Below, piece after piece: positions 8,834-36,717 of a stretch of 36,717 bases of DNA. The translations under genes and the position numbers were made by a program. The notes beneath the pieces are model-generated. The model worked only from the letters and a program-made list of their open reading frames with translations. It was not told where the DNA came from and did not search any database. Source of the stretch: a virus. The stretch lies in IMG/VR virus record IMGVR_UViG_3300023231_000002, positions 1-36,717 of that record. One strand, 5' to 3'. Every line of letters starts with the position of its first letter. Within the stretch, counting starts at the first letter, position 1.

Positions 8834-9469
8834 ATGGAAACAAAAACCCTCAAAACCCTCAAAACCTATGTGATCCGAGCCATAAAAAAAGAGCAGATGG
8901 CTCAAAATCCATTTGATTCCTATAAGGTGAAAGGGCAAAAAGTGGAGATGGTGTATCTCACCAGAAGAGAAGTGGCCCGGCTGGAGGAGCTTTATGATAC
9001 CCTCACAGATTTATCATTGAAAAGAACCCTCCAGAGCTTTTTATTTTGCTGCTTTTGTGGAGGAATAAGAGTGGGAGATCTCCCTTTTTTAAACCAGCAC
9101 AATAAATCATTGAGTGAGATTCACTATGTGCCCAATAAAACAAGAGAATCCTCCTCCAAAGTGATCAGAATCCCCATCAATAAAAAAGCCAGAAAACACA
9201 TCAATCCAGCCGGGAAAATTGTGCCCACCTACTGCTCACAAGTGATGAATAGGCATTTAAAAACATTGGCTCAATTGGCTGAAATTGAAAAGCCAATCAC
9301 TTTCCATGTTTCCCGCCATACTTTTGCCACCTTATTTCTCCAGATGGGGGGGAAAGTAGAAGTACTAAAAGAGCTCATGGGTCATTCAGCCATCAAATCT
9401 ACGATGCAATATGTGCATGTCACAGATCAGAGCAAGCATTCCCAGATGGATGCCATGGACAATCTCTAA
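8834..9469 (+). CDS. Tyrosine recombinase, catalytic domain only, 211 aa
   Basis: Catalytic signature present: GGIRVGDL (Arg), HVSRHTFAT (H-x-x-R), GHSAIKSTMQYVHV (His...Tyr). The N-terminal arm-binding and most of the SAM-like domain are absent, and the 170 bp upstream cannot encode them. Confidence 0.85.
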   Translation: METKTLKTLKTYVIRAIKKEQMAQNPFDSYKVKGQKVEMVYLTRREVARLEELYDTLTDLSLKRTLQSFLFCCFCGGIRVGDLPFLNQHNKSLSEIHYVPNKTRESSSKVIRIPINKKARKHINPAGKIVPTYCSQVMNRHLKTLAQLAEIEKPITFHVSRHTFATLFLQMGGKVEVLKELMGHSAIKSTMQYVHVTDQSKHSQMDAMDNL

Positions 9470-12168
9470 GTCGCTATCCCAGCCAGCTTTTCCACCTTTT
9501 CCTTTCTGGCTTGTTCATCCTCCAGATCTCTCAATGGCAGATTCACTTTGAATTCTCTTTGCCATTTGTTCATGATAGCATTCTGCTGTTTTATCAGAGC
9601 AATGAGCTCAGATGATCCAGCTCCCGGATCTGCTCCCCCAAAAACTCCACCTTTTTCCATCCTCAGATTCTCAGAGGCCCCTTTGTAGTTAATGCCCGGC
9701 ACTTGTCCAGATTCATTGATGCTCCTTAAAGTAGGCAAAGTGGATGCATTCACAGAATTTTTACGGATGATCATTTCTCCCCCTTCCATCTCTGCTCTCA
9801 CTTGGCCTGTGGATGGATCGATCACTGGCATGCCTCCGCTGGAATGAGAGGGGCCATTTAGCACATCAAACATTCCTCCAGCTGCATATTTCTGGGAGGC
9901 TATCATGGCCACTTGCCCCGCTGTGGATGCCACAATTGCAGGGATGGCAAGCGGGGCCAAAACCCCTGTTTGTGCAGTTGTTTTAGTGATTGCCAAAGCA
10001 CCATTTATCAATGCCTGAGCTATATCAATGCCTTTCTTTTTATTAAAAGCTGCTTTTTGAATTTTTTCTTTTTCCTTTTCATATTCAGCCTCACTGATGA
10101 TTCCAGCATCCTTTTTCTTTTGCAATCCATCCAGCTCCCTTTGCTCATTCCTATCAGCCCCTTGGCTCAATAAAGTGAACCCTGTATCCAGAGCCTCAGA
10201 AAGCATTTCTCTTTTTGCCTCTGCCAGAGCTCTTTGGGATTCCTCCTCTTTTTTTACTTCCTCCTCCAAATAAACCCCATGAGCCTCTGCCCTGCGGGCA
10301 TATCCCTCCAGCATCAATTGATCTTTGACGGCCTCCAGCTCCACAGCACTATCAATCTCCAAAAGATTCTGTGCCTCCAGCCGTTCCATTGTCTGCATCA
10401 TCACCCTATCAGCTGCCCCGGAGGATTCTGGTTTGCTCTGTTTTTTATTGGAAAGCTCCCCAGATATTTCATTGATTTGCTTTCTCAGGGATTCTTTGAG
10501 CTCTGGAGAGATAAATTGATTTTTGAGCAGCTCATTTGATTTTTTGAGCTCCTTTTTCAGCTCTTGAGTACTCATTTGAGAGAATGATTTTGCAGCATTC
10601 CCCCCAGCCGCTGCTGCTGATTCTGTGATTTTAGGATCTTCAAAGAAATGGGCAAATGGCTCTACCACGTCATCCATGAGCTGTGCCACACTATCACCAT
10701 AAGCACCCAAAGCTTCTTTAAAAGCCTCTGTGCCATTGTCCATTTTGAAATCAGAAAGAAAATCAAAAGCAGCTTTTCCCCCTTCGATTAACGCCCTGAA
10801 ACCTGAAATCACAATTTCAATCTGAGTGATGAAAAGTTTCAAGGGGAGCATCAAAAGTTTCACTGCTGTTGTTACAAAATCCAGCACGTTCACCGTTGAT
10901 TCACCCTCATCACTCATGAGCCCCATGGATTCCCCGAGCTCAGAAAACGCATCCTGCAGGCTTGAAAAATTATCTTGAATATCTTTTGTGGCCTCCTGAA
11001 AACCAACCACTATCATGGATATCACATTCACAATGGCCATCAATCCTCCCTCTCCCTCAGAAAATTGCAGAATAAGGCCATCCCATGCGGAGCCCAATAT
11101 TTTGAGCCTGCCATCTAAAGTGTTCAATTGAGTATCAGCCATTTTCTCTGCTGCTCCTCCAGCATCACCAAGGGCCACAGCGAGCTCTCCCACTTTCTCA
11201 CTCTGCTCTGCTAGTACAAGCAAGGCAGCCTGCCCCCTTTCTCCCACCAGATCATTGGCAATGGCCAATCTCTCAGCTGGAGAGGTGGCCTCGTCCAGCG
11301 CTTTTTTCACATTCCCCAGGGATTCAGCCAATGGCTTTCCATCTTTTGAGAGCTCGTTGAATATTTTTTTCAATGATGTGCCAGCCATTGAGCCATGAAT
11401 ACCACTATCAGCAAGTTTTCCCAGCATGGCAGCAGTATCCTCAATGGAAACCCCAGCAGCCCGAGCCAGTGGAGCAGCAGCTTTCATTGACTCTTTCCAC
11501 TTTTCCATATCAAGGCCAGAGGATGAAAAGCTTTTTGCCATCACATCCACCACCCGCTGCATATCTGTGGCCTCAAGGCCAAAAGCCCTGAGTGATGATC
11601 CGGCCACTGTTGCCGCCTCTCCCAGCTCTGTATTGGTAGCAGCTGCCAGAGATAAAGTGGCCTCTGTTACGTTCAAAATTTCTTGCTCACTGAATCCCAG
11701 CTTTGCATATTCTGTTTGCAAATTACTCACCTCCGCAGCAGTAAAGGAGGTGATGGCTCCCAATCTTTTGGAATCAGCCTCCAGAGCCACAATCTCCTCC
11801 CGGGTTTTCCCGAGCACTGAGGCCAGATTGGCCTGAGCTTGCCCAAATTCTTTGATGGTATTAAATGCCCCCCTCAAAACATTAACCAGAGTGGAGATGG
11901 CAAGCAGTGGCCCCAGCTGAGCTTTCATAAAATTGCCAAAGCCTCCCCATGCTTTTCTCATTCCCCCCACTTGCTTTCTGTGCTGATCCAGCACACCCTT
12001 TATTTTGCGGAGCTCCTTCACTTTTCGATTGTAATCATCAGATCCTCTCTCTGCTTTTTTTACTGAATTTCTCAGAGAGTGAAATTCCTTTTCAATGGCC
12101 TTGATATTATCGGCCACCTCTTTGCCATTTATTTTAATGGTGACTTTTCTATTCTCTGTTGCGGCCAT
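9466..12168 (-). CDS. Tail tape measure protein, 900 aa
   Basis: TP901-type tape-measure core recognised (LGAITSFTAAEV...LGFSEQEI...ATLSLAAATNTELGEAATVAGSSLRAFGL...AAPLARAAGVSIEDTAAMLGKLADSGI). Long Ala/Glu-rich helical regions and size fit. Confidence 0.85.
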   Translation of the reverse strand: MAATENRKVTIKINGKEVADNIKAIEKEFHSLRNSVKKAERGSDDYNRKVKELRKIKGVLDQHRKQVGGMRKAWGGFGNFMKAQLGPLLAISTLVNVLRGAFNTIKEFGQAQANLASVLGKTREEIVALEADSKRLGAITSFTAAEVSNLQTEYAKLGFSEQEILNVTEATLSLAAATNTELGEAATVAGSSLRAFGLEATDMQRVVDVMAKSFSSSGLDMEKWKESMKAAAPLARAAGVSIEDTAAMLGKLADSGIHGSMAGTSLKKIFNELSKDGKPLAESLGNVKKALDEATSPAERLAIANDLVGERGQAALLVLAEQSEKVGELAVALGDAGGAAEKMADTQLNTLDGRLKILGSAWDGLILQFSEGEGGLMAIVNVISMIVVGFQEATKDIQDNFSSLQDAFSELGESMGLMSDEGESTVNVLDFVTTAVKLLMLPLKLFITQIEIVISGFRALIEGGKAAFDFLSDFKMDNGTEAFKEALGAYGDSVAQLMDDVVEPFAHFFEDPKITESAAAAGGNAAKSFSQMSTQELKKELKKSNELLKNQFISPELKESLRKQINEISGELSNKKQSKPESSGAADRVMMQTMERLEAQNLLEIDSAVELEAVKDQLMLEGYARRAEAHGVYLEEEVKKEEESQRALAEAKREMLSEALDTGFTLLSQGADRNEQRELDGLQKKKDAGIISEAEYEKEKEKIQKAAFNKKKGIDIAQALINGALAITKTTAQTGVLAPLAIPAIVASTAGQVAMIASQKYAAGGMFDVLNGPSHSSGGMPVIDPSTGQVRAEMEGGEMIIRKNSVNASTLPTLRSINESGQVPGINYKGASENLRMEKGGVFGGADPGAGSSELIALIKQQNAIMNKWQREFKVNLPLRDLEDEQARKEKVEKLAGIAT

Positions 12169-12552: not shown

Positions 12553-13335
12553 TTATGCTCCGCTATTACAAAGCCTTGAAAGCACATAAATGATATCCAG
12601 AGTTGAAACTTTATAATCCCCATTAAAATCCCCCCGAGCTGATGATGGTACAATGAATTGATAGGGCTCAAAATAAAAAGTAGTATCTGGTGTGGAATAC
12701 CACCGATATTCCCCCAATGCCCCTGCTTTACAAAATGGATATGGGGCCTGATTAAGTACGGCATACCCTTCCCCTGTGCGCCTGTATTCTGCTCCCTTCT
12801 CAAAAGTTCTCATTTCAAGTGCATGATGGCCGTTGCATTCTGGGATATATCCCTCACAATCCGGCCCCACATAAACCTGAAACTGTAAATCCTCCCCTGT
12901 GCCAGCAAATGAGCCATCCACCCACCACTGAACAGAATCAAAATCTAAATCCTGATTTCCTCCCCAGAGCATAGAGCCATCATCATTCCTTGTATAATTT
13001 TGCTCCCTCCACTTTGTTTGAGAGCAAAAATTCCCCTCTTGAAAGTAGGGAGCACAAGCAGGGATGATATCCTCATAATGAGTGCCGAAATAAGGTAGAA
13101 TATCAAAGAGTAAATCTTGAAAATTCAAGCACTCAGACCCCCCTGTTTTCATTTCCGCCACTGATAAGCAGCTATCAATCAGCCCAATGCTCAGCTCAAT
13201 TTTTAAATTGTGCTTTGTGGCATAATCTGTGATAAATAGATGGTATTGCTCAGCAGTCTCTGGCAGAGGAGTGCTAAATGGCTCACAGCTCAAAAAGCTG
13301 ATGGAAATCATGATTGCAAAAAGAAACTTTTTCAT
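12553..13335 (-). CDS. Secreted lipoprotein, 260 aa, Cys/Trp-rich, with a C-terminal dockerin-like calcium-binding repeat
   Basis: N-terminus MKKFLFAIMISISFLSC (signal peptide plus lipobox-like Cys17). C-terminal DFNGDYKVSTLDIIYVLSRL matches the D-x-N-x-D-x-x-V-x-x-x-D dockerin/EF-hand-like repeat. Confidence 0.6.
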   Translation of the reverse strand: MKKFLFAIMISISFLSCEPFSTPLPETAEQYHLFITDYATKHNLKIELSIGLIDSCLSVAEMKTGGSECLNFQDLLFDILPYFGTHYEDIIPACAPYFQEGNFCSQTKWREQNYTRNDDGSMLWGGNQDLDFDSVQWWVDGSFAGTGEDLQFQVYVGPDCEGYIPECNGHHALEMRTFEKGAEYRRTGEGYAVLNQAPYPFCKAGALGEYRWYSTPDTTFYFEPYQFIVPSSARGDFNGDYKVSTLDIIYVLSRLCNSGA

Positions 13336-13430: not shown

Positions 13431-13682
13431 ATGAATGCTCAAATTGAAAGGATTAATGCAATGGCAAATAATGGGGAAGTAACAAGAGAGCTGCTCTCTT
13501 TAATTCTTGATTTTCATCAGCTCCATGCTTATGATACACTGCTAGAATTCTTGCAGCAAAGAATTCTGGGGATAATCACCTCAAAAGATGTATTAACTTT
13601 TGAATCCCTTTCTGAAAACCCCCAGAGATTTGATCTCCATGATCTGCTCTCTGTGATAAATAAACTTTGCAGCACCAAATAA
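13431..13682 (+). CDS. Opposite-strand small helical protein, 83 aa (moron-like)
   Basis: ATG at 13431. The stop runs directly into a hairpin terminator. This is the only plus-strand gene inside the late region. Confidence 0.5.
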   Translation: MNAQIERINAMANNGEVTRELLSLILDFHQLHAYDTLLEFLQQRILGIITSKDVLTFESLSENPQRFDLHDLLSVINKLCSTK

Positions 13683-13720
13683 AAAAAGCCCTAGTGATCA
13701 TCACTAGGGGCTTTTTTTTG
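13681..13720. terminator. Bidirectional rho-independent terminator
   Basis: Perfect 10-bp arms, ccctagtgat (13689..13698) / atcactaggg (13700..13709). Flanked by A7 (13681..13687) and T8 (13712..13719), so a U-run follows the stem on both strands. Confidence 0.7.
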
Positions 13721-13754: not shown

Positions 13755-14018
13755 TTATCCCCACCCATTTTTTCCACTATACTCTGTTTTAAAGCCCTTC
13801 ATCTGCTGGATAACTTGCTCTCCAATCCCTCCCGGATCCCCGTAAAACACAAACCCCATTCCTCCCGGTAGTTTCCCGGTTTTTACCACATCATTTGCAG
13901 GGGAAACTACCCTAATTTTACTCTCCAGCCCCTTTCTCACAGGGCATGATATTCTATGGGGCCACCCTGCCCATCTAAATCTCCCTTGATACATATAAAC
14001 TCTCCCTAGTTCTGCCAT
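13755..14018 (-). CDS. Hypothetical protein, 87 aa
   Basis: ATG at 14018 lies 4 nt after the stop of the upstream ORF. Last ORF before the terminator. Confidence 0.4.
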   Translation of the reverse strand: MAELGRVYMYQGRFRWAGWPHRISCPVRKGLESKIRVVSPANDVVKTGKLPGGMGFVFYGDPGGIGEQVIQQMKGFKTEYSGKNGWG

Positions 14019-14022
14019 CAGT

Positions 14023-14671
14023 TCACTGTTTTATCTGCTGGCCTAAGACATTAAATTTTGAGCCTGCAATTGTTTCTCGTTCTTTTTTCTGTTCATCAAT
14101 AGACAAATTCAAAAACCAGTTTTCACTCCACCACCAATCTCCGCACCCTGTCGACCAGCTCCAGCCGTCTATATTCACATAATATGGCCCCGGCTCCAGC
14201 TCAATTGTAAAATGCCACTCCTGCCTTGTGGGATCATAGACGGGCATGCAGCAGTAATTTTCAGAGGTCGCAAAATAACATTGGGTACCCCACACAAAAT
14301 CCATCTCTGAGCAGCTCCCCCCCTGATAAAATATCCATGGTGATACCCTCCAGCGGCCCATGATTCCCAATTGATGTACTATCCTCATCCACATAAGGCT
14401 CCTCGGGAGTTGTGCCCACATAAAACTCCACCATCCCTCCATGAATCACCTCAATAGTGTACCACAGATCATCATTGGGATAATGGCATGGATATGCCGG
14501 GAAAGTCCACCCCGGATCAAAAGGAATTTCAAAAGCAGAGGTGCAATCATAATTGCAAAATGATTCAGGTGATTGCTCCTCCACTGCAATTGCATCTGCA
14601 CAAAAATCATTTGGGCACTGGCTAAAAGCAGAGAAACCCCATAAAAGTAAAATAATTAGAAACCCTCTCAT
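14023..14671 (-). CDS. Secreted Cys/Trp-rich protein split into two overlapping frames at a G7 tract (frameshifted or phase-variable), about 216 aa if fused
   Basis: Frame A (14261..14671) starts with a signal peptide (MRGFLIILLLWGFSAFSQ). Frame B (14023..14442) looks protein-like only downstream of the C7 run at 14317..14323. Loss of one G, or a +1 shift there, joins ...MDILSGG to SCSEMDFVWGTQCYF... Confidence 0.5.
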
Positions 14672-14934
14672 ATAAGTCCCCTGTTTTTTGCTTTTCTCAG
14701 AGCGTTTTTTTCATCCCTTGCAAAGATTTCAACCCCATCAAAATAGAAAGCTTTCACTCCCTGCCGCCCCCTGATGCTGGCAGCATTCTTTTCCTTTTGG
14801 ATATAATTCAGCCCCTCCCTCCTGTTTTTTGGAGCAGGATGAAACCTCCTCTTTGTTCCCGGTTTTGTGGGCTCAACCTGGCTGGCCCCCATCATCCCAA
14901 TCATCCCTGCAATAAGTAATAAAATTTTTTTCAT
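14668..14934 (-). CDS. Small secreted basic protein, about 88 aa
   Basis: Signal peptide MKKILLLIAGMIGMMGASQ. The ATG at 14934 forms an ATGA overlap with the patatin stop; the track start at 14940 is also ATG. Confidence 0.55.
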   Translation of the reverse strand: MKKILLLIAGMIGMMGASQVEPTKPGTKRRFHPAPKNRREGLNYIQKEKNAASIRGRQGVKAFYFDGVEIFARDEKNALRKAKNRGLI

Positions 14935-15860
14935 TCCCATAGTTTCTTTGTTTTGCGGGCAATCACTTGCCCTGTATTATAGCAATAGTGAAATAAATTC
15001 TCTTGATGTTTCAGATCAGTATCATAAACCCCCTCCATGAATCCAGCTGGCTGGAAAAGCTCTATCAATTCAATGCCCATTTTTTTGCAATAGGCCCGGA
15101 GCTCAGACTGATCATTTTTACTGATTTCAAAATTCATGATAGCTATGGATCTCATCAGCATATCCAAAATATTTTTTGGCTCTGGCAATCCATCCAGCAC
15201 AGAATCCAAAATCTCTGGTCTGCTGTAAACAGCCACCACTATATCCAGTCTTTTATAACAATAATCTTTGAGGCTTTTGATAGGTAAGTGATTTCGCAAT
15301 CCCCCATCTGCTCCTGATTTGATTATTTCACTAAAAACAGGGATTGATGAGGAGGCTGAAATAAAATCATCCATGGGCATATCAGTATGGCCTGCTCTAT
15401 TGATGGCCCCCAGCTCAATGGCTCCTGATTTAATATTCACTTTTTCTGCATATACTGAAACTCCAGTTCTCTTGATGGCTTGATAAACCGACATTCTGCC
15501 AGCCTCCACAAAAAAATCTGTGGCATAAATGGATTTAAAAAGCTCCTGTTTCAGCTTTGACATATCCCCCAGATAATTCCTGCCCCGGATGATATTCATG
15601 ATAGCGTAAAATCTCAGCCCCCCCTTTTTTGTGAGGGGAGCTCGTTTCCAGAAATCTTTGGGCTGGATATTTTTGAAAGCCTCTGCTTTTTGACTCACCA
15701 CCCCAGCAGCCACAAAGGGAGCAATAATGGCCCCGGCACTAACTCCGGCCACCATTTCAAATATCATCCCCTCCTCCTCTAGTGCTAGAGCATAACCAGC
15801 GTGGCCAGCTATTTTTGTACCTCCCCCAGAAAATAAAATTCCTATGTTTTTTTTGCTCAT
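14931..15860 (-). CDS. Patatin-like phospholipase, 309 aa
   Basis: GILFSGGGTKIAGH (oxyanion-hole G-G-G-x-K), AGVSAGA (G-x-S-x-G nucleophile) and SGADGGLRNHLP (catalytic D-G-G). No signal peptide. ATGA overlap with the endolysin stop. Confidence 0.85.
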   Translation of the reverse strand: MSKKNIGILFSGGGTKIAGHAGYALALEEEGMIFEMVAGVSAGAIIAPFVAAGVVSQKAEAFKNIQPKDFWKRAPLTKKGGLRFYAIMNIIRGRNYLGDMSKLKQELFKSIYATDFFVEAGRMSVYQAIKRTGVSVYAEKVNIKSGAIELGAINRAGHTDMPMDDFISASSSIPVFSEIIKSGADGGLRNHLPIKSLKDYCYKRLDIVVAVYSRPEILDSVLDGLPEPKNILDMLMRSIAIMNFEISKNDQSELRAYCKKMGIELIELFQPAGFMEGVYDTDLKHQENLFHYCYNTGQVIARKTKKLWE

Positions 15861-16306
15861 GGCTTGAAAATTTTAAATAAGTCTTGGCCCGTATAAGCGC
15901 AATCTATATGGCTCCAAGTGGTGGTGAATTCAGGATCTTCAATCCTAGTGATCCTGCCTGATTGGATGAGCTCCCCCTCCATTGTTTTTAATTCCTCCAG
16001 AACCTCAGAAGGGCTGTATTTACACACAAAATCAAAAGCTCTCCCAAACTTATGCTGGGATAAGCTGGAGCCAATACCAGAGGAAAATGGCCTGAGCCCA
16101 GAGAATGCTCTTGTGCCACCCGCAGCCCAATTATTTACTGTAAAAGGGCAGCCCATTTTTTTTCTCACTATCTGGAGCCCTTCAATGATTCTATTATCTA
16201 AAAACTTCAATGGCCTGATTGTGCCATCATAAAAATCTGGATGAATCAATTCATCCAGATAAAAGTTTTCTGTGATTTTAATCCTCTTTTCTTGTGGGAT
16301 GAGCAT
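15857..16306 (-). CDS. Peptidase M15 family cell-wall hydrolase (endolysin), 149 aa
   Basis: Zinc-ligand pattern SQHKFGRAFD (H-x6-D) plus WSHID, as in M15/VanY-type phage peptidoglycan peptidases. Confidence 0.8.
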   Translation of the reverse strand: MLIPQEKRIKITENFYLDELIHPDFYDGTIRPLKFLDNRIIEGLQIVRKKMGCPFTVNNWAAGGTRAFSGLRPFSSGIGSSLSQHKFGRAFDFVCKYSPSEVLEELKTMEGELIQSGRITRIEDPEFTTTWSHIDCAYTGQDLFKIFKP

Positions 16307-16479
16307 TATTTTTTCTTTTTAAAAGTGATGAGAGCAGATCCAATCAAAGCCCCTGAAATGATGCTCATAAAAATCACCCCACCCAAAAAGGAAACCTCTT
16401 TATCTAGGAAAATAATAGTGATAAGAGAGCCCACCCAAACAAGGCAGATGAATAGGAAATGCGGGAAACTATTATTCAT
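16306..16479 (-). CDS. 57-aa two-TM holin-like protein (absent from the ORF track, below its size cutoff)
   Basis: Hand translation: MNNSFPHFLFICLVWVGSLITIIFLDKEVSFLGGVIFMSIISGALIGSALITFKKKK. Two hydrophobic helices and a Lys4 C-terminus. ATGA overlap with the upstream stop and TAATG overlap with the endolysin start. Confidence 0.55.
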   Translation of the reverse strand: MNNSFPHFLFICLVWVGSLITIIFLDKEVSFLGGVIFMSIISGALIGSALITFKKKK

Positions 16480-16937
16480 ATCTCTAAAAATTTAAAAAAG
16501 ATGATTGATGCCACTATGAGCAGCGATAAATTGATAATGAAATAAATGAATGCTGGGTTTGATTTTTTTCCGAAAACAAAAGAGAGGATGCTTTTAGCCA
16601 TGCCATCCATACCGTTCTCTGAGAGGTGAAAAAAAGGTAAATCTTTTTGAAAAAATCTGATTTTGAGGCCATTCAGGGCCCATGCGAAAATACTATTTCT
16701 AGCTACTGCCATGAGCACTATTATGGGCCAAAATTTTAAATCTAAAACTAAAAGCAGGCTCCAAAGCATCCCCCACAATCCTGCAAAAAGAATGTGGTAT
16801 TCTCTATCAAGCTCACCAGCATCCTGCCCCCCTTCTCTTTGATATACAATATGAAACCGCTGGATGATAAAGTGGATTTTAGACTCCACAACAGCAATTG
16901 AGAGGATCAATAAAAACAGAATGATATTTATCAGCAT
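16476..16937 (-). CDS. Four-TM membrane protein, 153 aa; first gene of the lysis operon
   Basis: ATG at 16937 checked. Four hydrophobic segments. No family recognised. Confidence 0.55.
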   Translation of the reverse strand: MLINIILFLLILSIAVVESKIHFIIQRFHIVYQREGGQDAGELDREYHILFAGLWGMLWSLLLVLDLKFWPIIVLMAVARNSIFAWALNGLKIRFFQKDLPFFHLSENGMDGMAKSILSFVFGKKSNPAFIYFIINLSLLIVASIIFFKFLEI

Positions 16938-17063
16938 AGTGAGGATGGTTTTAATGAAAGCACCAAGGCCAAAGCCCTGATGCTTTATTGTTCGAGGCTC
17001 CGAGCTGTTTTGCAGGCTATCAAACCCACAATCCCCCCAGAGCCTTTCTAGGGTGTTTTTTTT

Positions 17064-17146
17064 TGCATCGGAGTGTTCGTGGCTCTATATCCACCACGAA
17101 CCTCTCCGCTTAACCAAATCAAGTGATGATAAACCACTCCGATGCA
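17064..17146. other. Structured element: 12-bp outer stem enclosing a 7-bp hairpin; possible ncRNA or protein-binding site
   Basis: Outer arms tgcatcggagtg (17064..17075) / cactccgatgca (17135..17146). Inner arms ttcgtgg (17076..17082) / ccacgaa (17094..17100). Bracketed by the 11-bp direct repeat tcaaacccaca at 17020 and 17157. Confidence 0.35.
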
Positions 17147-17239
17147 GTGGGAATAGTCAAACCCACAGCACCCTTGTCAATAAGAAATTACTCTCATCTG
17201 CTCGTTTGCAGATTCATGTTGGCTGTAAATATATGATAA

Positions 17240-17253
17240 TATAGAATTCTATA
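17240..17253. promoter_or_regulatory. Perfect 14-bp palindrome TATAGAATTCTATA (possible operator)
   Basis: Seen in the non-coding gap upstream of the lysis operon, in very AT-rich context. Confidence 0.3.
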
Positions 17254-17381
17254 GTATTTAAATACGGAAAAACCGTGTCAAAAACCAGCTTTCACCTCTT
17301 TTTTAATTTTATTTTTGGTACTGTGGGCTGATTATAGCCTTGATGTGACAAGGGGATGAGAAAAGAAAGATATTTCCTCCC

Positions 17382-17828
17382 TCAGTTTTGATTGTTAGTA
17401 AAACAAGAAATGGGGATTGTAATACCAACAGAGCTGCTGTAAAAAACAGAATTCCCCATCAGATTGAGCCTCTCTCTGCTTTCAGGGTATTCCAACAAAG
17501 CCCCAGCATCTCTCTCACTAGCTTTATGCTTGCCCCACAGCTCTGGATGATCCAGCAAACCCTTTTTACTGTACTTGTTTTGAGTAAAAACAACATCTGA
17601 CATATATGCAATGGCTGCCACACCGATCAAAGCAAAGCCATTGATCTCAAGGCCATGCTGATCCTGCATTCCCATCATCACAATACTGGCCCCCACAACT
17701 AAGGAAGCCCCCAGATACCTCTGATTTATCTCTTTCATGGGGTTATTATCTGGGAAATCAGAAAGCTTTTGAGATGCCGCAATCAGGCTGGAGAGGATAA
17801 AAATGGCTGTGATTAGTAGTTTCATCAT
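17382..17828 (-). CDS. Membrane/secreted protein, 148 aa
   Basis: Signal-like N-terminus MMKLLITAIFILSSLIAASQ plus two internal hydrophobic segments. Last gene of the virion operon. Confidence 0.5.
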   Translation of the reverse strand: MMKLLITAIFILSSLIAASQKLSDFPDNNPMKEINQRYLGASLVVGASIVMMGMQDQHGLEINGFALIGVAAIAYMSDVVFTQNKYSKKGLLDHPELWGKHKASERDAGALLEYPESRERLNLMGNSVFYSSSVGITIPISCFTNNQN

Positions 17829-22788: not shown

Positions 22789-23447
22789 TTCATCAAAAAT
22801 GATCCAGCCATAAAGCCCACCCCAAAATTGAAAGCTCTAGTTTCATAAAATGGCTTTTTCTCATCCACCACAAAATTGGTGAGAGCAGAGGTTTGAATCA
22901 ATGGATTGGAATGGCTCACCACTAAAACTGGGAGTGATTTTCTGAAAAAACCCCTTTTCTCTAGTCCATAGCTCACTGTAGTGGTATTGGGGATTTTTAA
23001 ATGATTTATTTTCAATCCCAATTCATTCACCTCTGCTGAGAGAGAGAACTTTTTTGAGCTGTCTAAAAAAGCTGCAGGGATTTTTAAAAAAAGGGAGGAA
23101 TCTATCTCCACAGTTTCAAGAGATTGGACAGCTGGCACCATCACATCCCTGATCTCTGTGATAGTTCTCACAATAGCCTGCTGTTTTACTTCTTTTAGTT
23201 TTTTATACTCTTTTTTTAGTAGTTGAGTGGCAAGCTCTTGAGAAACCAGAGTTTGCTCCTGAATCACCAATTTTTTGCCCTGCTCTGAGATCACTGCTCT
23301 AAATTGAGAGCTGTCCTGTACCAATGAAATATTGTTTTTGGAGAGAGCTGAAATTTCATTTCTAATGAGCCCACTCCTAGAGAGCAGCAGCAACAGCAAA
23401 AAAAACAGAATACCACTCCCCGGATTTAGGAATTTATTGATCTTCAT
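22785..23447 (-). CDS. N-terminally membrane-anchored coiled-coil protein, 220 aa (i-spanin-like topology, speculative)
   Basis: Hydrophobic anchor GILFFLLLLLLS followed by a heptad-like Q/E/K-rich region. TAATG overlap with the holin-family gene. Confidence 0.35.
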   Translation of the reverse strand: MKINKFLNPGSGILFFLLLLLLSRSGLIRNEISALSKNNISLVQDSSQFRAVISEQGKKLVIQEQTLVSQELATQLLKKEYKKLKEVKQQAIVRTITEIRDVMVPAVQSLETVEIDSSLFLKIPAAFLDSSKKFSLSAEVNELGLKINHLKIPNTTTVSYGLEKRGFFRKSLPVLVVSHSNPLIQTSALTNFVVDEKKPFYETRAFNFGVGFMAGSFLMK

Positions 23448-23869
23448 TATTTAGATTTTAAAAAATTATCCATTTTTGATTTTATCCTCCCCCAGATATC
23501 AATACCCGTTATATCTCCAATGTTTTCGATGTTACTTTGAAACTCAATGGCAGAGATAAACCCTGCCACCATATAGGAGAGAGGGATGAAATTTTCCACC
23601 CAAGTTCCCTGAAAATAAACCAGCTCAAAACCACGGCTCAAAAAGACAGCCATGAAATAATAAGTGATTTTTAAAACAGTGGCTCGGAGTGATTTTGATT
23701 TTATAACCTCTCCCCGCTTTTTTGCTGCTCTCACCCCCGTGATCACATCACAAAAAACCAAAGTGATCATCACAAGTAAATAGGGCCAGATTGGCTCAAA
23801 AAAGCTCAATGCAAAGCCAGAGCCAACAGCTAAAACTTTAAATAAAATGGAGGTAGGATTTTCAAACAT
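23447..23869 (-). CDS. Holin-family membrane protein (Phage_holin_4-like), about 140 aa
   Basis: VFCDVITGVRAAKKRGEVIKSKSLRATVLKITYYFMAVFL matches the D-x-x-TG-x-x-A-x-x-x-x-x-x-x-S-x motif of LL-H-type holins, with flanking TM segments. Start moved to the ATG at 23869 (TAATG overlap). Confidence 0.55.
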   Translation of the reverse strand: MFENPTSILFKVLAVGSGFALSFFEPIWPYLLVMITLVFCDVITGVRAAKKRGEVIKSKSLRATVLKITYYFMAVFLSRGFELVYFQGTWVENFIPLSYMVAGFISAIEFQSNIENIGDITGIDIWGRIKSKMDNFLKSK

Positions 23870-24864
23870 TAAAGGCCGGGATAAATACCACTCCCCGAAG
23901 TCGGGGAGAGGGATGATGGTGAGGTGTGGGCAGTATAGCAATCACTACCAGAATACAGTGGATAATCATCAATATTTTCAATCAGATGCTTTTTCAAGAG
24001 ATCAATAGCAGTGGCAGCCTCCCTTTTATTAAAAATCATCATCCTGTTAATGGGGGCAAACTCCAGATTCTTTTGGCCGTTGTTACTTGTTGCACTGGAA
24101 TCCCTAAAGCTCATCATTAGTTTAGGGCCGATCACAGAAATATTCATCTCCTCGCTGGCCCATGATAAGGTAAAGTGAACAATGGCCCGCTGGATAAATG
24201 GAATGAGAGGGGCATAAACCCCAAAATCATTGCCTATCATGATCTCATTCTTGATAAAATCATACAAATCACCACAGAGAGCTGGCTTTATCACTTGCTC
24301 CTCCACCCTACTCATCACTGGCCTCAAATTGTGGAGCATAAAAGCTCCCAGCTGAATGGATGTGTATTTATTAAAATCTTTGGGTATATTAATCAGATTC
24401 CTCATGTTATCTGCTCGGGCATCACTTGTTTTATACCCCGTAATATTCAGGCCCTCAGCAGTCAAAAAATCCAGTAGCCTATCCATGCATGCCTGCCCAT
24501 CCATAGAGAGCTGATCCCTGAAAGCGTTCACTCTAGCCTCACTAGCTGGAACATGAGTGTCTGATTTTGTAACATGAAACCCGCCATCAGTGGCCGTTAT
24601 ATTGTTGTATGAAACGCATTTTTCCTGAGCCAATAAAGCAAGGGGAGCCCTGCATAAATCTAGGAGCTTCCTATCTAAAACAGAAAATGAATCATCATCC
24701 ATGGCTGTGAGCAAATTCTCCAGAGGAGTGATCCCAATCACTGGCTTTATAAACTCAGCCTGAGAGAGAGAGAGAGCATGCTTATAGCTTGCAAATTCTG
24801 TGGATCTTGTAGAGGGAGCAAACTCCCACATCAGATCTGCTGTATTAATTAAAAGTTTTTCCAT
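23869..24864 (-). CDS. Hypothetical virion protein, 331 aa
   Basis: TAATG overlap with the portal candidate. Contains a (CT)7.5 microsatellite (24762..24776). Confidence 0.55.
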   Translation of the reverse strand: MEKLLINTADLMWEFAPSTRSTEFASYKHALSLSQAEFIKPVIGITPLENLLTAMDDDSFSVLDRKLLDLCRAPLALLAQEKCVSYNNITATDGGFHVTKSDTHVPASEARVNAFRDQLSMDGQACMDRLLDFLTAEGLNITGYKTSDARADNMRNLINIPKDFNKYTSIQLGAFMLHNLRPVMSRVEEQVIKPALCGDLYDFIKNEIMIGNDFGVYAPLIPFIQRAIVHFTLSWASEEMNISVIGPKLMMSFRDSSATSNNGQKNLEFAPINRMMIFNKREAATAIDLLKKHLIENIDDYPLYSGSDCYTAHTSPSSLSPTSGSGIYPGL

Positions 24865-36590: not shown

Positions 36591-36717
36591 GTTGTAAACC
36601 ATTTAAGAAAGTGTAGTTTCTATTTTTGTACGCAAATGATCAACGTCTTTTTTGAAAAGTATATCGCAATTCCAAGGAAAGTACCCGTTCATAAAATCGC
36701 CTCCATAAATGAAAACG
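36591..36717. repeat. Terminal direct repeat, copy 2 (circular-assembly overlap)
   Basis: Identical to 1..127. Contains only a duplicated 3' fragment of gene 13..279. Confidence 0.95.

Follow-up and report, generated by a model that had tools for sequence, protein, structure and literature searches.

We identified a patatin-like phospholipase of 309 amino acids (aa) in a lysis-type gene cassette of a complete phage genome (~36.6 kb), whose host is probably a member of Bacteroidota. Its placement in a cell-bursting gene cluster suggests that a lipid-cutting enzyme is used alongside a wall-cutting enzyme for escape, and our leading, if tentative, explanation is that the patatin is a late-expressed, non-essential and holin-dependent lipolytic accessory of the cassette. 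The whole stretch of DNA analysed (36,717 nt) is called the window below.

Identity and fold of the patatin

The patatin gene (14931..15860, minus strand) encodes a predicted cytoplasmic protein, for which PF01734 was the sole matching Pfam family, with a score of 71.5 bits (cutoff 27.7; E=1.4e-19) over residues 9-197. The motifs from which a first-pass annotation of this DNA had recognized a patatin-like lipase, namely GGGTK at 12-16 (G12-G13-G14), GVSAG with Ser41 and DGG with Asp185, were invariant or nearly so in alignments of 19 and 58 sequences, and the predicted catalytic Ser41/Asp185 dyad and GGG oxyanion loop are intact; the profile search confirmed the family, and the alignments the dyad. 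NCBIfam returned nothing more than sub-threshold matches to the patatin-family models VpdC and RssA. The AF2 model (pLDDT 91.5, pTM 0.91) has a compact PlpD/CapV-like patatin fold. When it was compared with CapV and other solved structures by Foldseek, as the annotation had proposed, the closest were the compact bacterial patatins PlpD, AbCapV and CapE, and the top 33 PDB matches were all of the patatin/cPLA2 fold. The protein consists of one soluble enzymatic domain, with neither a structural or tail-attachment domain nor an extra sensor domain. An N-terminal signal peptide, already reported missing from the lipase, was found neither on it nor on the endolysin.

Endolysin and holin candidates

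Upstream of the patatin lies the gene of a 149-aa LAS/M15-type zinc peptidase (15857..16306, minus strand), which we assign as the endolysin on the basis of its PHROG match, its zinc triad and its fold. It matched phrog_894 'endolysin' at E=9.7e-15, while the match to Pfam M15_4 was sub-threshold (E=0.034, 15 bits, cutoff 25); some of its homologues match PF08291. The H-x6-D...H signature noted in the first pass corresponds to H85-x6-D92 and H133, a triad invariant in 16 homologues. Sequence-only PDB searches gave nothing, or spurious TPR-repeat matches, and fold comparison was needed instead: the best PDB match of the AF2 model (pLDDT 92) was 1lbu (prob 0.99, E=4e-3), the Zn DD-peptidase on which the M15 family was founded. 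Sonic hedgehog (Hedgehog-N) and VldE came next, and TM-scores were just 0.3-0.5. No signal or SAR sequence was found on the peptidase. It is a minimal enzyme beside small membrane proteins, as is typical for endolysins.

Two of these membrane proteins are holin candidates. The 153-aa protein (16476..16937, minus strand) has 3-4 transmembrane (TM) segments predicted from hydrophobicity and is a holin or antiholin candidate without a match in Pfam, PHROG or NCBIfam; its homologues occur in the related phages L003, L005, L008 and L100, and the ATGA coupling of its gene to the 2-TM gene is constant. The 57-aa protein (16306..16479, minus strand), with two TM segments and a KKKK tail, resembles a class II holin in generic features (size, TM domain, charged C-terminus and endolysin adjacency), and counterparts of 62-67 aa with charged tails were found in L003, L005 and L008. 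The earlier description of this ORF as holin-like therefore stands with regard to its two TM segments, charged tail and position next to the M15 gene, but it had no significant family match in Pfam, PHROG or NCBIfam. The sole significant holin-family match in the genome is instead a 164-aa Phage_holin_4_1 protein (23447..23941, minus strand; PF05105, 37.5 bits, cutoff 22.2), which also gave sub-threshold NCBIfam matches to the holin_1 and holin_tox_secr models. Its gene lies within the structural gene block, 7 kb from the cassette, and is conserved in L003, L005 and L008.

Organization and boundaries of the cassette

The cassette genes form a minus-strand chain in the order 153-aa multi-TM protein, 57-aa 2-TM protein, 149-aa LAS/M15 peptidase, 309-aa patatin and secreted proteins. 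All the ORFs of the first-pass annotation, including the 57-aa one, and all its overlapping start/stop junctions were recovered as described, with ATGA overlaps at 16476-16479, 15857-15860, 14931-14934 and 14668-14671 and a TAATG junction (1-nt overlap) at 16304-16308 between the 57-aa and M15 genes. The ATGA at 14931-14934, which joins the patatin to the following 90-aa gene, requires the second ATG of the latter, at 14934. No promoter or terminator serves the patatin gene alone, and its neighbours overlap it at both ends. Such overlaps occur at 24 of the 45 same-strand junctions genome-wide (nine of the 4-nt type; junction table) and are the norm in this genome, not special to the lysis block. 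The claim that the lipase is translationally coupled to the endolysin thus retains the ATGA overlap at 15857-15860, but this junction exists in the window only and overlaps are found throughout the genome.

Upstream, the chain is preceded by a 444-nt intergenic gap (16938..17381; junction table), likely a transcription or regulatory boundary. Within the gap, matches to a sigma-70-like consensus were at background frequency and none above it. The Bacteroidetes promoter motif TTTG-N17-23-TAnnTTTG showed no enrichment, and the gap contained no match to it. Downstream, a strong bidirectional intrinsic terminator (13689..13709; 9-bp stem with T-runs on both sides) closes the cassette transcript and sets apart a unit encoding a lipoprotein, a 123-aa protein and the tape measure protein (TMP). 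As the cassette is bounded by this gap and this terminator, the patatin and the TMP belong to separate transcription units. The block as a whole has tail-fibre-like genes (for proteins of 533 and 688 aa) on one side and the TMP gene on the other. Beyond the gap, a 148-aa secreted or membrane protein (17382..17828, minus strand; predicted signal peptide cleaved between AAS and Q, Gly-rich hydrophobic segments) is encoded first after the 688-aa tail-fibre-like gene. It heads the cassette region in all relatives, has homologues at the identical position in L001, L003, L005 and L008, and matched nothing in Pfam, PHROG or NCBIfam. The last ORF of the chain by ORF calling (87 aa; 13755..14018, minus strand) had no BLAST homologue in the relatives and may not be a real gene.

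Secreted proteins and the search for spanins

The patatin is followed by a small secreted cationic protein of 90 aa with a signal peptide (14668..14940, minus strand; weak phrog_37413 match), the mature form of which would have ~70 aa, with 18 K+R versus 7 D+E. A C-terminal motif is common to this protein and the small basic proteins encoded after M15 in L001, L005 and L008. It is a conserved component of the cassette and a candidate rival of the patatin for outer-membrane disruption. The next gene, for a secreted Cys-rich protein (14023..14671, minus strand), is split over two reading frames, represented by the ORFs 14261-14671 (136 aa, with a signal peptide) and 14023-14442. In relatives it is a single protein of 240-270 aa that matches both frames here by tblastn, and the frame change falls at ~14325-14340, within 'GATATTTTATCAGGGGGGGAG'.

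Past the terminator, a 260-aa lipoprotein (12553..13335, minus strand) was found by lipobox scan, with an FLSC lipobox and a C-terminal dockerin-like motif. Its gene directly follows the patatin in L001, L005, L008 and L096, and it had no match in Pfam, PHROG, NCBIfam or PDB sequence searches. When all start codons in the 12-18 kb region were scanned for spanin-like genes, it was the sole lipobox ORF, and no small or embedded one was present. The 148-aa family was considered as a u-spanin, since the L001 member has a lipobox and a C-terminal TM domain, and was rejected because the lipobox Cys is not conserved but confined to L001. The first-pass statement that no spanin equivalent is established for phages of Bacteroidota-like hosts is dated, as u-spanins have been predicted for such phages (PMC12596118, PMC8776804), though none was detectable here.

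Conservation in related phages and origin of the patatin

The patatin is present in six of six members of the phage subfamily, whose proteins share just 31-66% identity. The genes for M15, the small cationic secreted protein, the 4-TM and 2-TM proteins and the patatin are contiguous across the subfamily in permuted order: here the patatin separates M15 from the cationic protein, which in the other genomes directly follows M15. A survey of endolysin-patatin adjacency, suggested with the first-pass annotation, accordingly gave a mixed answer, in that cassette membership is kept in the subfamily while direct adjacency is confined to the window; the relatives have one to three other genes in between, and in L096 a DNA methyltransferase gene lies between the two and precedes the patatin. 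Adjacency of patatin and lipoprotein (four of six) is more constant than that of M15 and patatin. The subfamily patatins form one monophyletic, deep-branching clade and were therefore vertically inherited and retained. The L005/L006 patatin carries two in-frame TGA codons ahead of the GGG loop and may be disrupted and inactive; for L005, a 1-nt indel suggests itself as a simpler reading of these codons than stop-codon recoding.

The stretch from the tail fibre gene to the integrase is flexible in its cargo: there, the sister phages L100-L102, which share the tail genes, primase and integrase, encode the membrane proteins, the 123-aa protein and a lipoprotein but neither patatin nor M15. Because the TMP gene lies elsewhere in the sister phages, its proximity to the patatin is a subfamily-specific rearrangement. 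The 123-aa gene upstream of the TMP gene was considered as a tape-measure chaperone and rejected, as it is not beside the TMP gene in the sister phages; a PDB sequence search with its product gave no match. The relatives, which carry full integrases, are temperate. Megablast against the deposited phage collection found no related genomes, and tblastn only four patatin matches, all weak. A profile scan with the 123-aa family in IMG/VR and JGI metagenomes recovered only relatives already in our set, and the family is rare outside the Logan assemblies.

Patatins of other phage lineages adjoin MazG, methylase, HTH or DNA polymerase genes, that is, replication/methylase settings, and three contexts (L011, L094 and L096) place a patatin beside a DNA methyltransferase. 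In the unrelated phage L012, the patatin is paired with a small 2-TM protein and lies just upstream of chaperone-like genes and the TMP gene; a 338-aa neighbour there had no match in a PDB sequence search. The closest cellular homologues (~30-35% identity over the full length) are Bacteroidota RssA-like patatins encoded downstream of ksgA-mgtE in Flavobacteriaceae. They share with the phage protein a C-terminal extension with an EISKND motif and the lack of a signal peptide, but belong to the chromosomal core genome, away from any phage or lysis genes. As these homologues are cytoplasmic housekeeping genes in the KsgA-MgtE operon, not defence-island genes, the patatin clade is not intrinsically a membrane destroyer.

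Proposed role in lysis and alternative explanations

In the explanation that we tentatively favour, the patatin and the signal-less LAS/M15 endolysin would be co-produced and would accumulate in the cytoplasm. Permeabilization of the inner membrane by a holin, for which the neighbouring 2-TM/4-TM pair, the distant Phage_holin_4_1 protein or both are candidates, would then allow both soluble enzymes to reach the envelope. There, the M15 peptidase would cut peptidoglycan and the patatin would deacylate glycerolipids of the outer-membrane inner leaflet and the damaged inner membrane, yielding lysolipids and free fatty acids that would help rupture the outer membrane. By analogy, the patatin would be a functional counterpart of LysB, spanins or disruptins. 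The earlier hypothesis of a lipase that substitutes for a spanin is partly supported, by a genuine patatin in a conserved lysis-type cassette, but the adjacency to the endolysin is specific to the window and the sister phages have no patatin. The intact active site, the lack of a signal peptide as in the endolysin, the place in one overlapped and bounded chain, retention in all six members as a single clade, contiguity despite permutation, the lack of a spanin-like gene in 12-18 kb and the 2-TM pairing in L012 speak for a role in lysis, as do the precedents of LysB, the phage WO cassette (PMC9203015) and a non-spanin disruptor (bioRxiv 10.1101/515445). Against it, a cytoplasmic phospholipase could reach the inner membrane before holin triggering, the conserved cationic secreted protein could perform the outer-membrane step instead, M15-patatin adjacency is limited to the window and less constant than that of patatin and lipoprotein, the cellular homologues are housekeeping genes, the sister phages do without a patatin, the L005/L006 copy is maybe inactive, and other lineages carry patatins in non-lysis settings.

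A possible though less probable explanation is that the patatin is cargo (an auxiliary metabolic gene or moron) derived from a Bacteroidota housekeeping patatin, which remodels or salvages host lipids or conditions the infected cell, and which merely sits in the flexible region between tail fibre and integrase where lysis genes and other cargo accumulate. The housekeeping operon of the cellular homologues, the lineage-specific occurrence of the patatin, absent from sister phages that share the tail genes, primase and integrase, and the probable disruption of the L005 copy are consistent with this. So are the methyltransferase neighbours in L011, L094 and L096 and the MazG or DNA polymerase neighbours elsewhere, except that these contexts belong to separate patatin lineages. 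Viral patatins occur chiefly in giant viruses, and one published survey counted a viral patatin among putative auxiliary metabolic genes (PMC9469726). Cargo is, however, harder to reconcile with a gene that lacks its own promoter and terminator, is overlapped on both sides within a lysis-type cassette, and has stayed contiguous with M15 and the membrane proteins in all six members despite shuffling. If the patatin is cargo, the subfamily is a documented case in which a temperate phage lineage took up a housekeeping patatin from Bacteroidota and has stably kept it.

It is unlikely that the patatin is a CapV/CapE-like, membrane-targeting exclusion or abortive-infection effector of a temperate phage that kills the cell or blocks superinfecting phages, the alternative raised in the first-pass annotation. 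CapV and CapE are among the closest solved structures, the relatives are temperate, and the neighbouring lipoprotein and secreted proteins are of kinds often used for exclusion. However, the matches to the PADLOC phospholipase-effector models PDLC00757/00758 were weak (E=0.0026 and 0.0078) and covered ~60 residues round the nucleophile elbow, and PADLOC found no cyclase, CD-NTase, sensor or other defence partner among 15 window proteins, its other match being one DNA methyltransferase. Moreover, the patatin lacks a sensor domain, is translationally chained to late lysis genes rather than independently expressed, and has housekeeping cellular relatives. Least probable of all is that the patatin, possibly with M15, is virion-associated and breaches envelope lipids and wall for DNA entry, an idea prompted by the position of the block between tail-fibre-like and TMP genes, the similar place of the L012 patatin and the entry or exit role considered for the phage WO patatin (PMC3173496), but opposed by the strong terminator before the TMP unit, the subfamily-specific proximity to TMP, a soluble patatin devoid of structural domains and a minimal M15 flanked by small membrane proteins as typical endolysins are.

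Comparison with known lytic systems

Among established systems, LysB of mycobacteriophages is the lipid-ester-cleaving partner of the endolysin LysA, non-essential and attacking the outer lipid layer in the final step of lysis; it is a cutinase-like alpha/beta-hydrolase with a Ser-Asp-His triad that cleaves mycolyl-arabinogalactan esters. The phage cassette resembles this system in having a second, lipid-cleaving enzyme beside the peptidoglycan hydrolase, but its enzyme combines the patatin fold with a Ser-Asp dyad and would act on Gram-negative envelope glycerolipids; a cutinase-like fold was not indicated, as Pfam gave only Patatin and all significant fold matches were patatin/cPLA2-type. 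PlpD (5fya), AbCapV (9jeh, 8zr9) and CapE (9iom) share with the phage patatin the catalytic arrangement of GGG loop, GxSxG and DGG (Foldseek E ~1e-12 to 1e-13, TM 0.6-0.65), at sequence identities of just 14-20%. Unlike the phage patatin, which has no secretion domain, PlpD is carried as the passenger of a type Vd autotransporter, and CapV and CapE are switched on by cyclic nucleotides that a neighbouring CD-NTase makes, a partner that the window lacks.

If the favoured explanation holds, the patatin would act at the same step as spanins and disruptins, namely the removal of the outer-membrane barrier after peptidoglycan degradation (bioRxiv 10.1101/515445; PMC12596118). Spanins fuse membranes and depend on a lipobox and/or a TM domain, whereas the patatin is a 309-aa soluble enzyme; the phiKT gp28 'disruptin', a 56-aa cationic peptide and non-spanin outer-membrane disruptor (bioRxiv 10.1101/515445), is more similar to the 90-aa cationic secreted protein than to the patatin. 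In a survey cited in bioRxiv 10.1101/515445, about 15% of phages of Gram-negative hosts had no recognizable spanin, and the only alternative demonstrated is a cationic peptide; a lipase as endolysin partner, if true, would be a new enzymatic solution by which spanin-less phages breach the outer membrane. It is conceivable, although we regard it as doubtful, that the patatin is the founding enzymatic phospholipase-type lysis protein of Gram-negative (Bacteroidota) phages, released by a holin with a canonical endolysin and dissolving the outer and residual inner membrane by lipolysis. [quoted passage not shown]

The idea of a lipase in lysis is not unprecedented, because a 'patatin-based lytic cassette' has already been put forward as a hypothesis for the Wolbachia phage WO (Symbioviridae; PMC9203015, PMC3173496). 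A part in entry or exit has been discussed for its patatin as well (PMC3173496). In phage WO, the patatin is thought to replace the endolysin, there being no conserved endolysin and no detectable peptidoglycan, and it has ankyrin-repeat partners; in the window, a LAS/M15 endolysin is present, the patatin would be additional, and no ankyrin match was found in Pfam or PHROG searches. The host phylum and phage lineage also differ, as does, by inference, the patatin clade, and the likeness is drawn from published descriptions. In both systems, the patatin gene of a temperate phage neighbours one for a small holin-like membrane protein, and the block adjoins the tail module, a layout represented here by the 2-TM and 4-TM genes of the overlapped patatin chain between the tail-fibre-like genes and TMP. 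A lytic function of the patatin described here, if true, would give the phage WO patatin-lysis hypothesis an experimental footing.

Patatin identity and transcription unit

All of the ORFs and junctions listed in the first-pass annotation were found in the window, and the 309-aa protein that it had taken for a patatin-like lipase (14931–15860, minus strand) is a patatin, matching PF01734 at 71.5 bits (cutoff 27.7) without a PHROG family match. Its catalytic residues are in place, with G12–G14, Ser41 (GVSAG) and Asp185 (DGG) conserved across 58 homologues, and its AlphaFold model is confident (pLDDT 91.5). When the predicted fold was compared with solved structures, PlpD, AbCapV and CapE were nearest, and ExoU and VipD were more distant. 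Patatins in the viral structure library belonged mostly to giant viruses, nudiviruses and ascoviruses, and to only one or two tailed phages.

The gene lies in a minus-strand chain that is bounded upstream by a 444-nt gap and downstream by a strong bidirectional terminator (13689–13709); the chain encodes, in order, a 4-TM protein (16476–16937), a 57-aa 2-TM protein (16306–16479), an M15 peptidase (15857–16306), the patatin, a 90-aa secreted protein, a frameshifted secreted Cys-rich protein and an 87-aa ORF. These bounds place the patatin in a lysis-type unit, not in the downstream unit of lipoprotein, 123-aa protein and tape measure protein (TMP). The start/stop overlaps, previously read as translational coupling, are real but unremarkable, as 24 of the 45 same-strand junctions of the genome overlap.

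The small secreted protein following the patatin (14668–14940, minus strand) is cationic, its mature form of ~70 aa holding 18 K+R versus 7 D+E; it has a conserved C-terminal motif, and its homologues directly follow M15 in three relatives (L001, L005 and L008). The Cys-rich gene (14023–14671, minus strand) is split over two frames near 14325–14340, the frame changing at GATATTTTATCAGGGGGGGAG (T4 and G7 runs), and its counterparts in relatives are single ORFs of 240–270 aa; the split may stem from erroneous sequencing, pseudogenisation or programmed +1 frameshifting. An 83-aa ORF (13431–13682, plus strand), the only sizeable opposite-strand ORF nearby, separates the cassette from the lipoprotein gene; it ends at the shared bidirectional terminator and keeps its orientation in L003/L004. 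The 260-aa lipoprotein (12553–13335, minus strand) has an FLSC lipobox and a C-terminal dockerin-like motif, DFNGDYKVSTLDIIYVLSRLC, conserved among relatives; it matched no family and no PDB entry, and in four of the six subfamily genomes its gene comes immediately after that of the patatin.

Endolysin, holin candidates and a putative lytic role

The 149-aa protein proposed as an M15 peptidase fell below the Pfam M15 threshold, but a match to phrog_894 ('endolysin'), the zinc triad and a LAS fold speak for the assignment: H85-x6-D92 and H133 are invariant among homologues, and the predicted structure (pLDDT 92) is best matched by the M15 prototype 1lbu. The 57-aa ORF has holin-like features, as had been suggested, but the sole holin-family match in the genome is a Phage_holin_4_1 protein (23447–23941, minus strand; PF05105, 37.5 bits versus a cutoff of 22.2). 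Its gene lies in the structural block directly after DUF6712, ~7 kb from the endolysin, and is conserved in L003, L005 and L008. Both are candidate holins, the former by its features and the latter by family match. At the equivalent post-DUF6712 position, L094, a phage with another patatin lineage, has an M15_3 peptidase.

The first-pass interpretation is supported in part; tentatively, we regard the window patatin as a holin-dependent lipolytic helper of lysis. Because neither it nor the M15 protein has an export signal, both would remain cytoplasmic until a holin opens the membrane, whereupon peptidoglycan cleavage by M15 and lipid deacylation by the patatin would act jointly on the envelope. 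No spanin-like gene was detectable around the cassette (12–18 kb), but the earlier statement that no spanin equivalent is established for phages of Bacteroidota-like hosts is dated, since there are predictions of u-spanins in Bacteroidota phages elsewhere (PMC12596118, PMC8776804). The outer-membrane step could instead fall to the cationic secreted protein, whose role would then resemble that of the phiKT disruptin (bioRxiv 10.1101/515445).

Conservation across the subfamily and alternative roles

Homology searches and contig look-ups yielded five further subfamily members (L001, L003/L004/L007, L005/L006, L008 and L096), whose proteins are 31–66% identical to those of the window. The patatin is present in all six genomes, and a rough NJ tree groups the subfamily patatins in one monophyletic clade. 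From a 688-aa tail-fibre-like gene to the lipoprotein, the subfamily has in common a ~150-aa secreted/membrane protein, M15, the cationic protein, an ATGA-coupled 4-TM/2-TM pair and the patatin, except that L001 is without the 4-TM/2-TM pair and the L096 contig is cut off upstream. Gene order differs among the genomes, with 4TM-2TM-M15 in the window and L003, M15-cationic-4TM-2TM-patatin in L005 and L008, and M15-cationic-patatin in L001. This contiguity survives order shuffling, which argues for functional linkage of the cassette genes. The endolysin–patatin adjacency did not extend to relatives, as M15 and patatin are direct neighbours only in the window, where the patatin stands between M15 and the cationic protein. 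The sister phages L100–L102 have tail genes, the 123-aa gene, integrase and primase in common with the subfamily, and their corresponding region encodes membrane proteins and a lipoprotein, with no patatin or M15 found by BLAST. In the unrelated phage L012, the patatin likewise has a small 2-TM protein as its partner, immediately ahead of the TMP block.

In L005 and L006, from two samples, two in-frame TGA codons immediately precede the GGGTK oxyanion loop (L005 9927–9971, 'GGG CTT TGA GTT TGA GGA GGA GGA'), and the called L005 gene (260 aa) begins after the GGG loop. These codons probably reflect a 1-nt indel that left a disrupted gene, so this patatin may be inactive.

Several comparative findings count against an obligate lysis role, among them the M15–patatin adjacency confined to the window, the sister phages lacking both genes, the L005/L006 copy and the housekeeping setting of the closest cellular homologues. 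As the main alternative, itself rather unlikely, the patatin may be cargo that the phages have kept and that acts on host lipids to some end other than lysis. Other phage patatins adjoin MazG (L009), methylases (L011, L094) or DNA polymerase (L103); being separate lineages, they count only weakly against a lysis role in the window clade. Within the subfamily, the gene before the L096 patatin encodes a DNA methyltransferase (phrog_757, E=1e-51). Patatin and DNA methyltransferase genes directly adjoin in three independent phage contexts (L011 8854–10909, L094 9768–11502 and L096 587–2197).

The suggestion of a CBASS-like killing effector is poorly supported. In Flavobacteriaceae chromosomes (L015, L017, L018, L020, L037, L080), a conserved operon encodes TPR, DUF4286, GGACT, KsgA (rRNA dimethylase) and MgtE proteins with patatin last, and no phage genes lie near the closest cellular homologues. 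This housekeeping setting implies that the ancestral enzyme was a tolerated cytoplasmic protein rather than a toxin, and may point to a housekeeping function, as yet uncharacterised, in this patatin clade. A virion enzyme is disfavoured by the terminator and the single-domain architecture of the patatin.

Genome and putative host

An exact 127-nt direct repeat (1–127 and 36591–36717) bounds a unit of ~36.6 kb, so the window comprises an entire genome, which is either circular or flanked by direct terminal repeats; no DNA-level relative was found among deposited phages. The minus strand carries nearly all genes, which include a primase, TMP, head maturation protease, DUF6712 protein, Phage_holin_4_1 protein, orphan DNA methyltransferase and the C-terminal half of a tyrosine integrase. 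The integrase ORF (8834–9469, plus strand; 211 aa, PF00589) spans only residues 193–412 of the relatives' 395–412-aa integrases, and the 143-aa gene adjoining the L096 integrase is missing; the phage may descend from a temperate lineage and have lost the ability to lysogenise. The TMP gene (9466–12168, minus strand) is the last of the late block, next to the integrase and downstream of the tail-fibre-like genes and lysis cassette, and sister phages L100–L102 have the canonical TMP-162-530-700 aa order; judged by gene order, its position is an unusual relocation.

The cellular homologues of the patatin are all from Bacteroidota. Signal-peptidase I sites predicted by eye from ORF translations have Gln at +1 in the cassette secreted proteins (AAS↓QK, AFS↓QC, GAS↓QV; 17382–17828, 14668–14940, 14261–14671), as do homologues in L001–L008, a feature described as the Bacteroidetes 'Q-rule' (PMC5837995). 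These observations point to a Bacteroidota host.

Comparison with known lytic systems

In full-text searches of one literature library, no report was found of a patatin and an endolysin in one lysis cassette, or of a Bacteroidota phage with a lysis-cassette patatin. The phage family of the window is small and uncultivated, and we infer the function of its patatin throughout; the proposed lytic role is nonetheless concrete and testable. The concept of a lysis patatin has precedent in the lytic cassette proposed for Wolbachia phage WO, where a patatin would replace a missing endolysin (PMC9203015, PMC3173496), whereas the window patatin stands alongside one. With LysB, the lipolytic lysis enzyme of mycobacteriophages, the functional analogy holds, although the folds differ.
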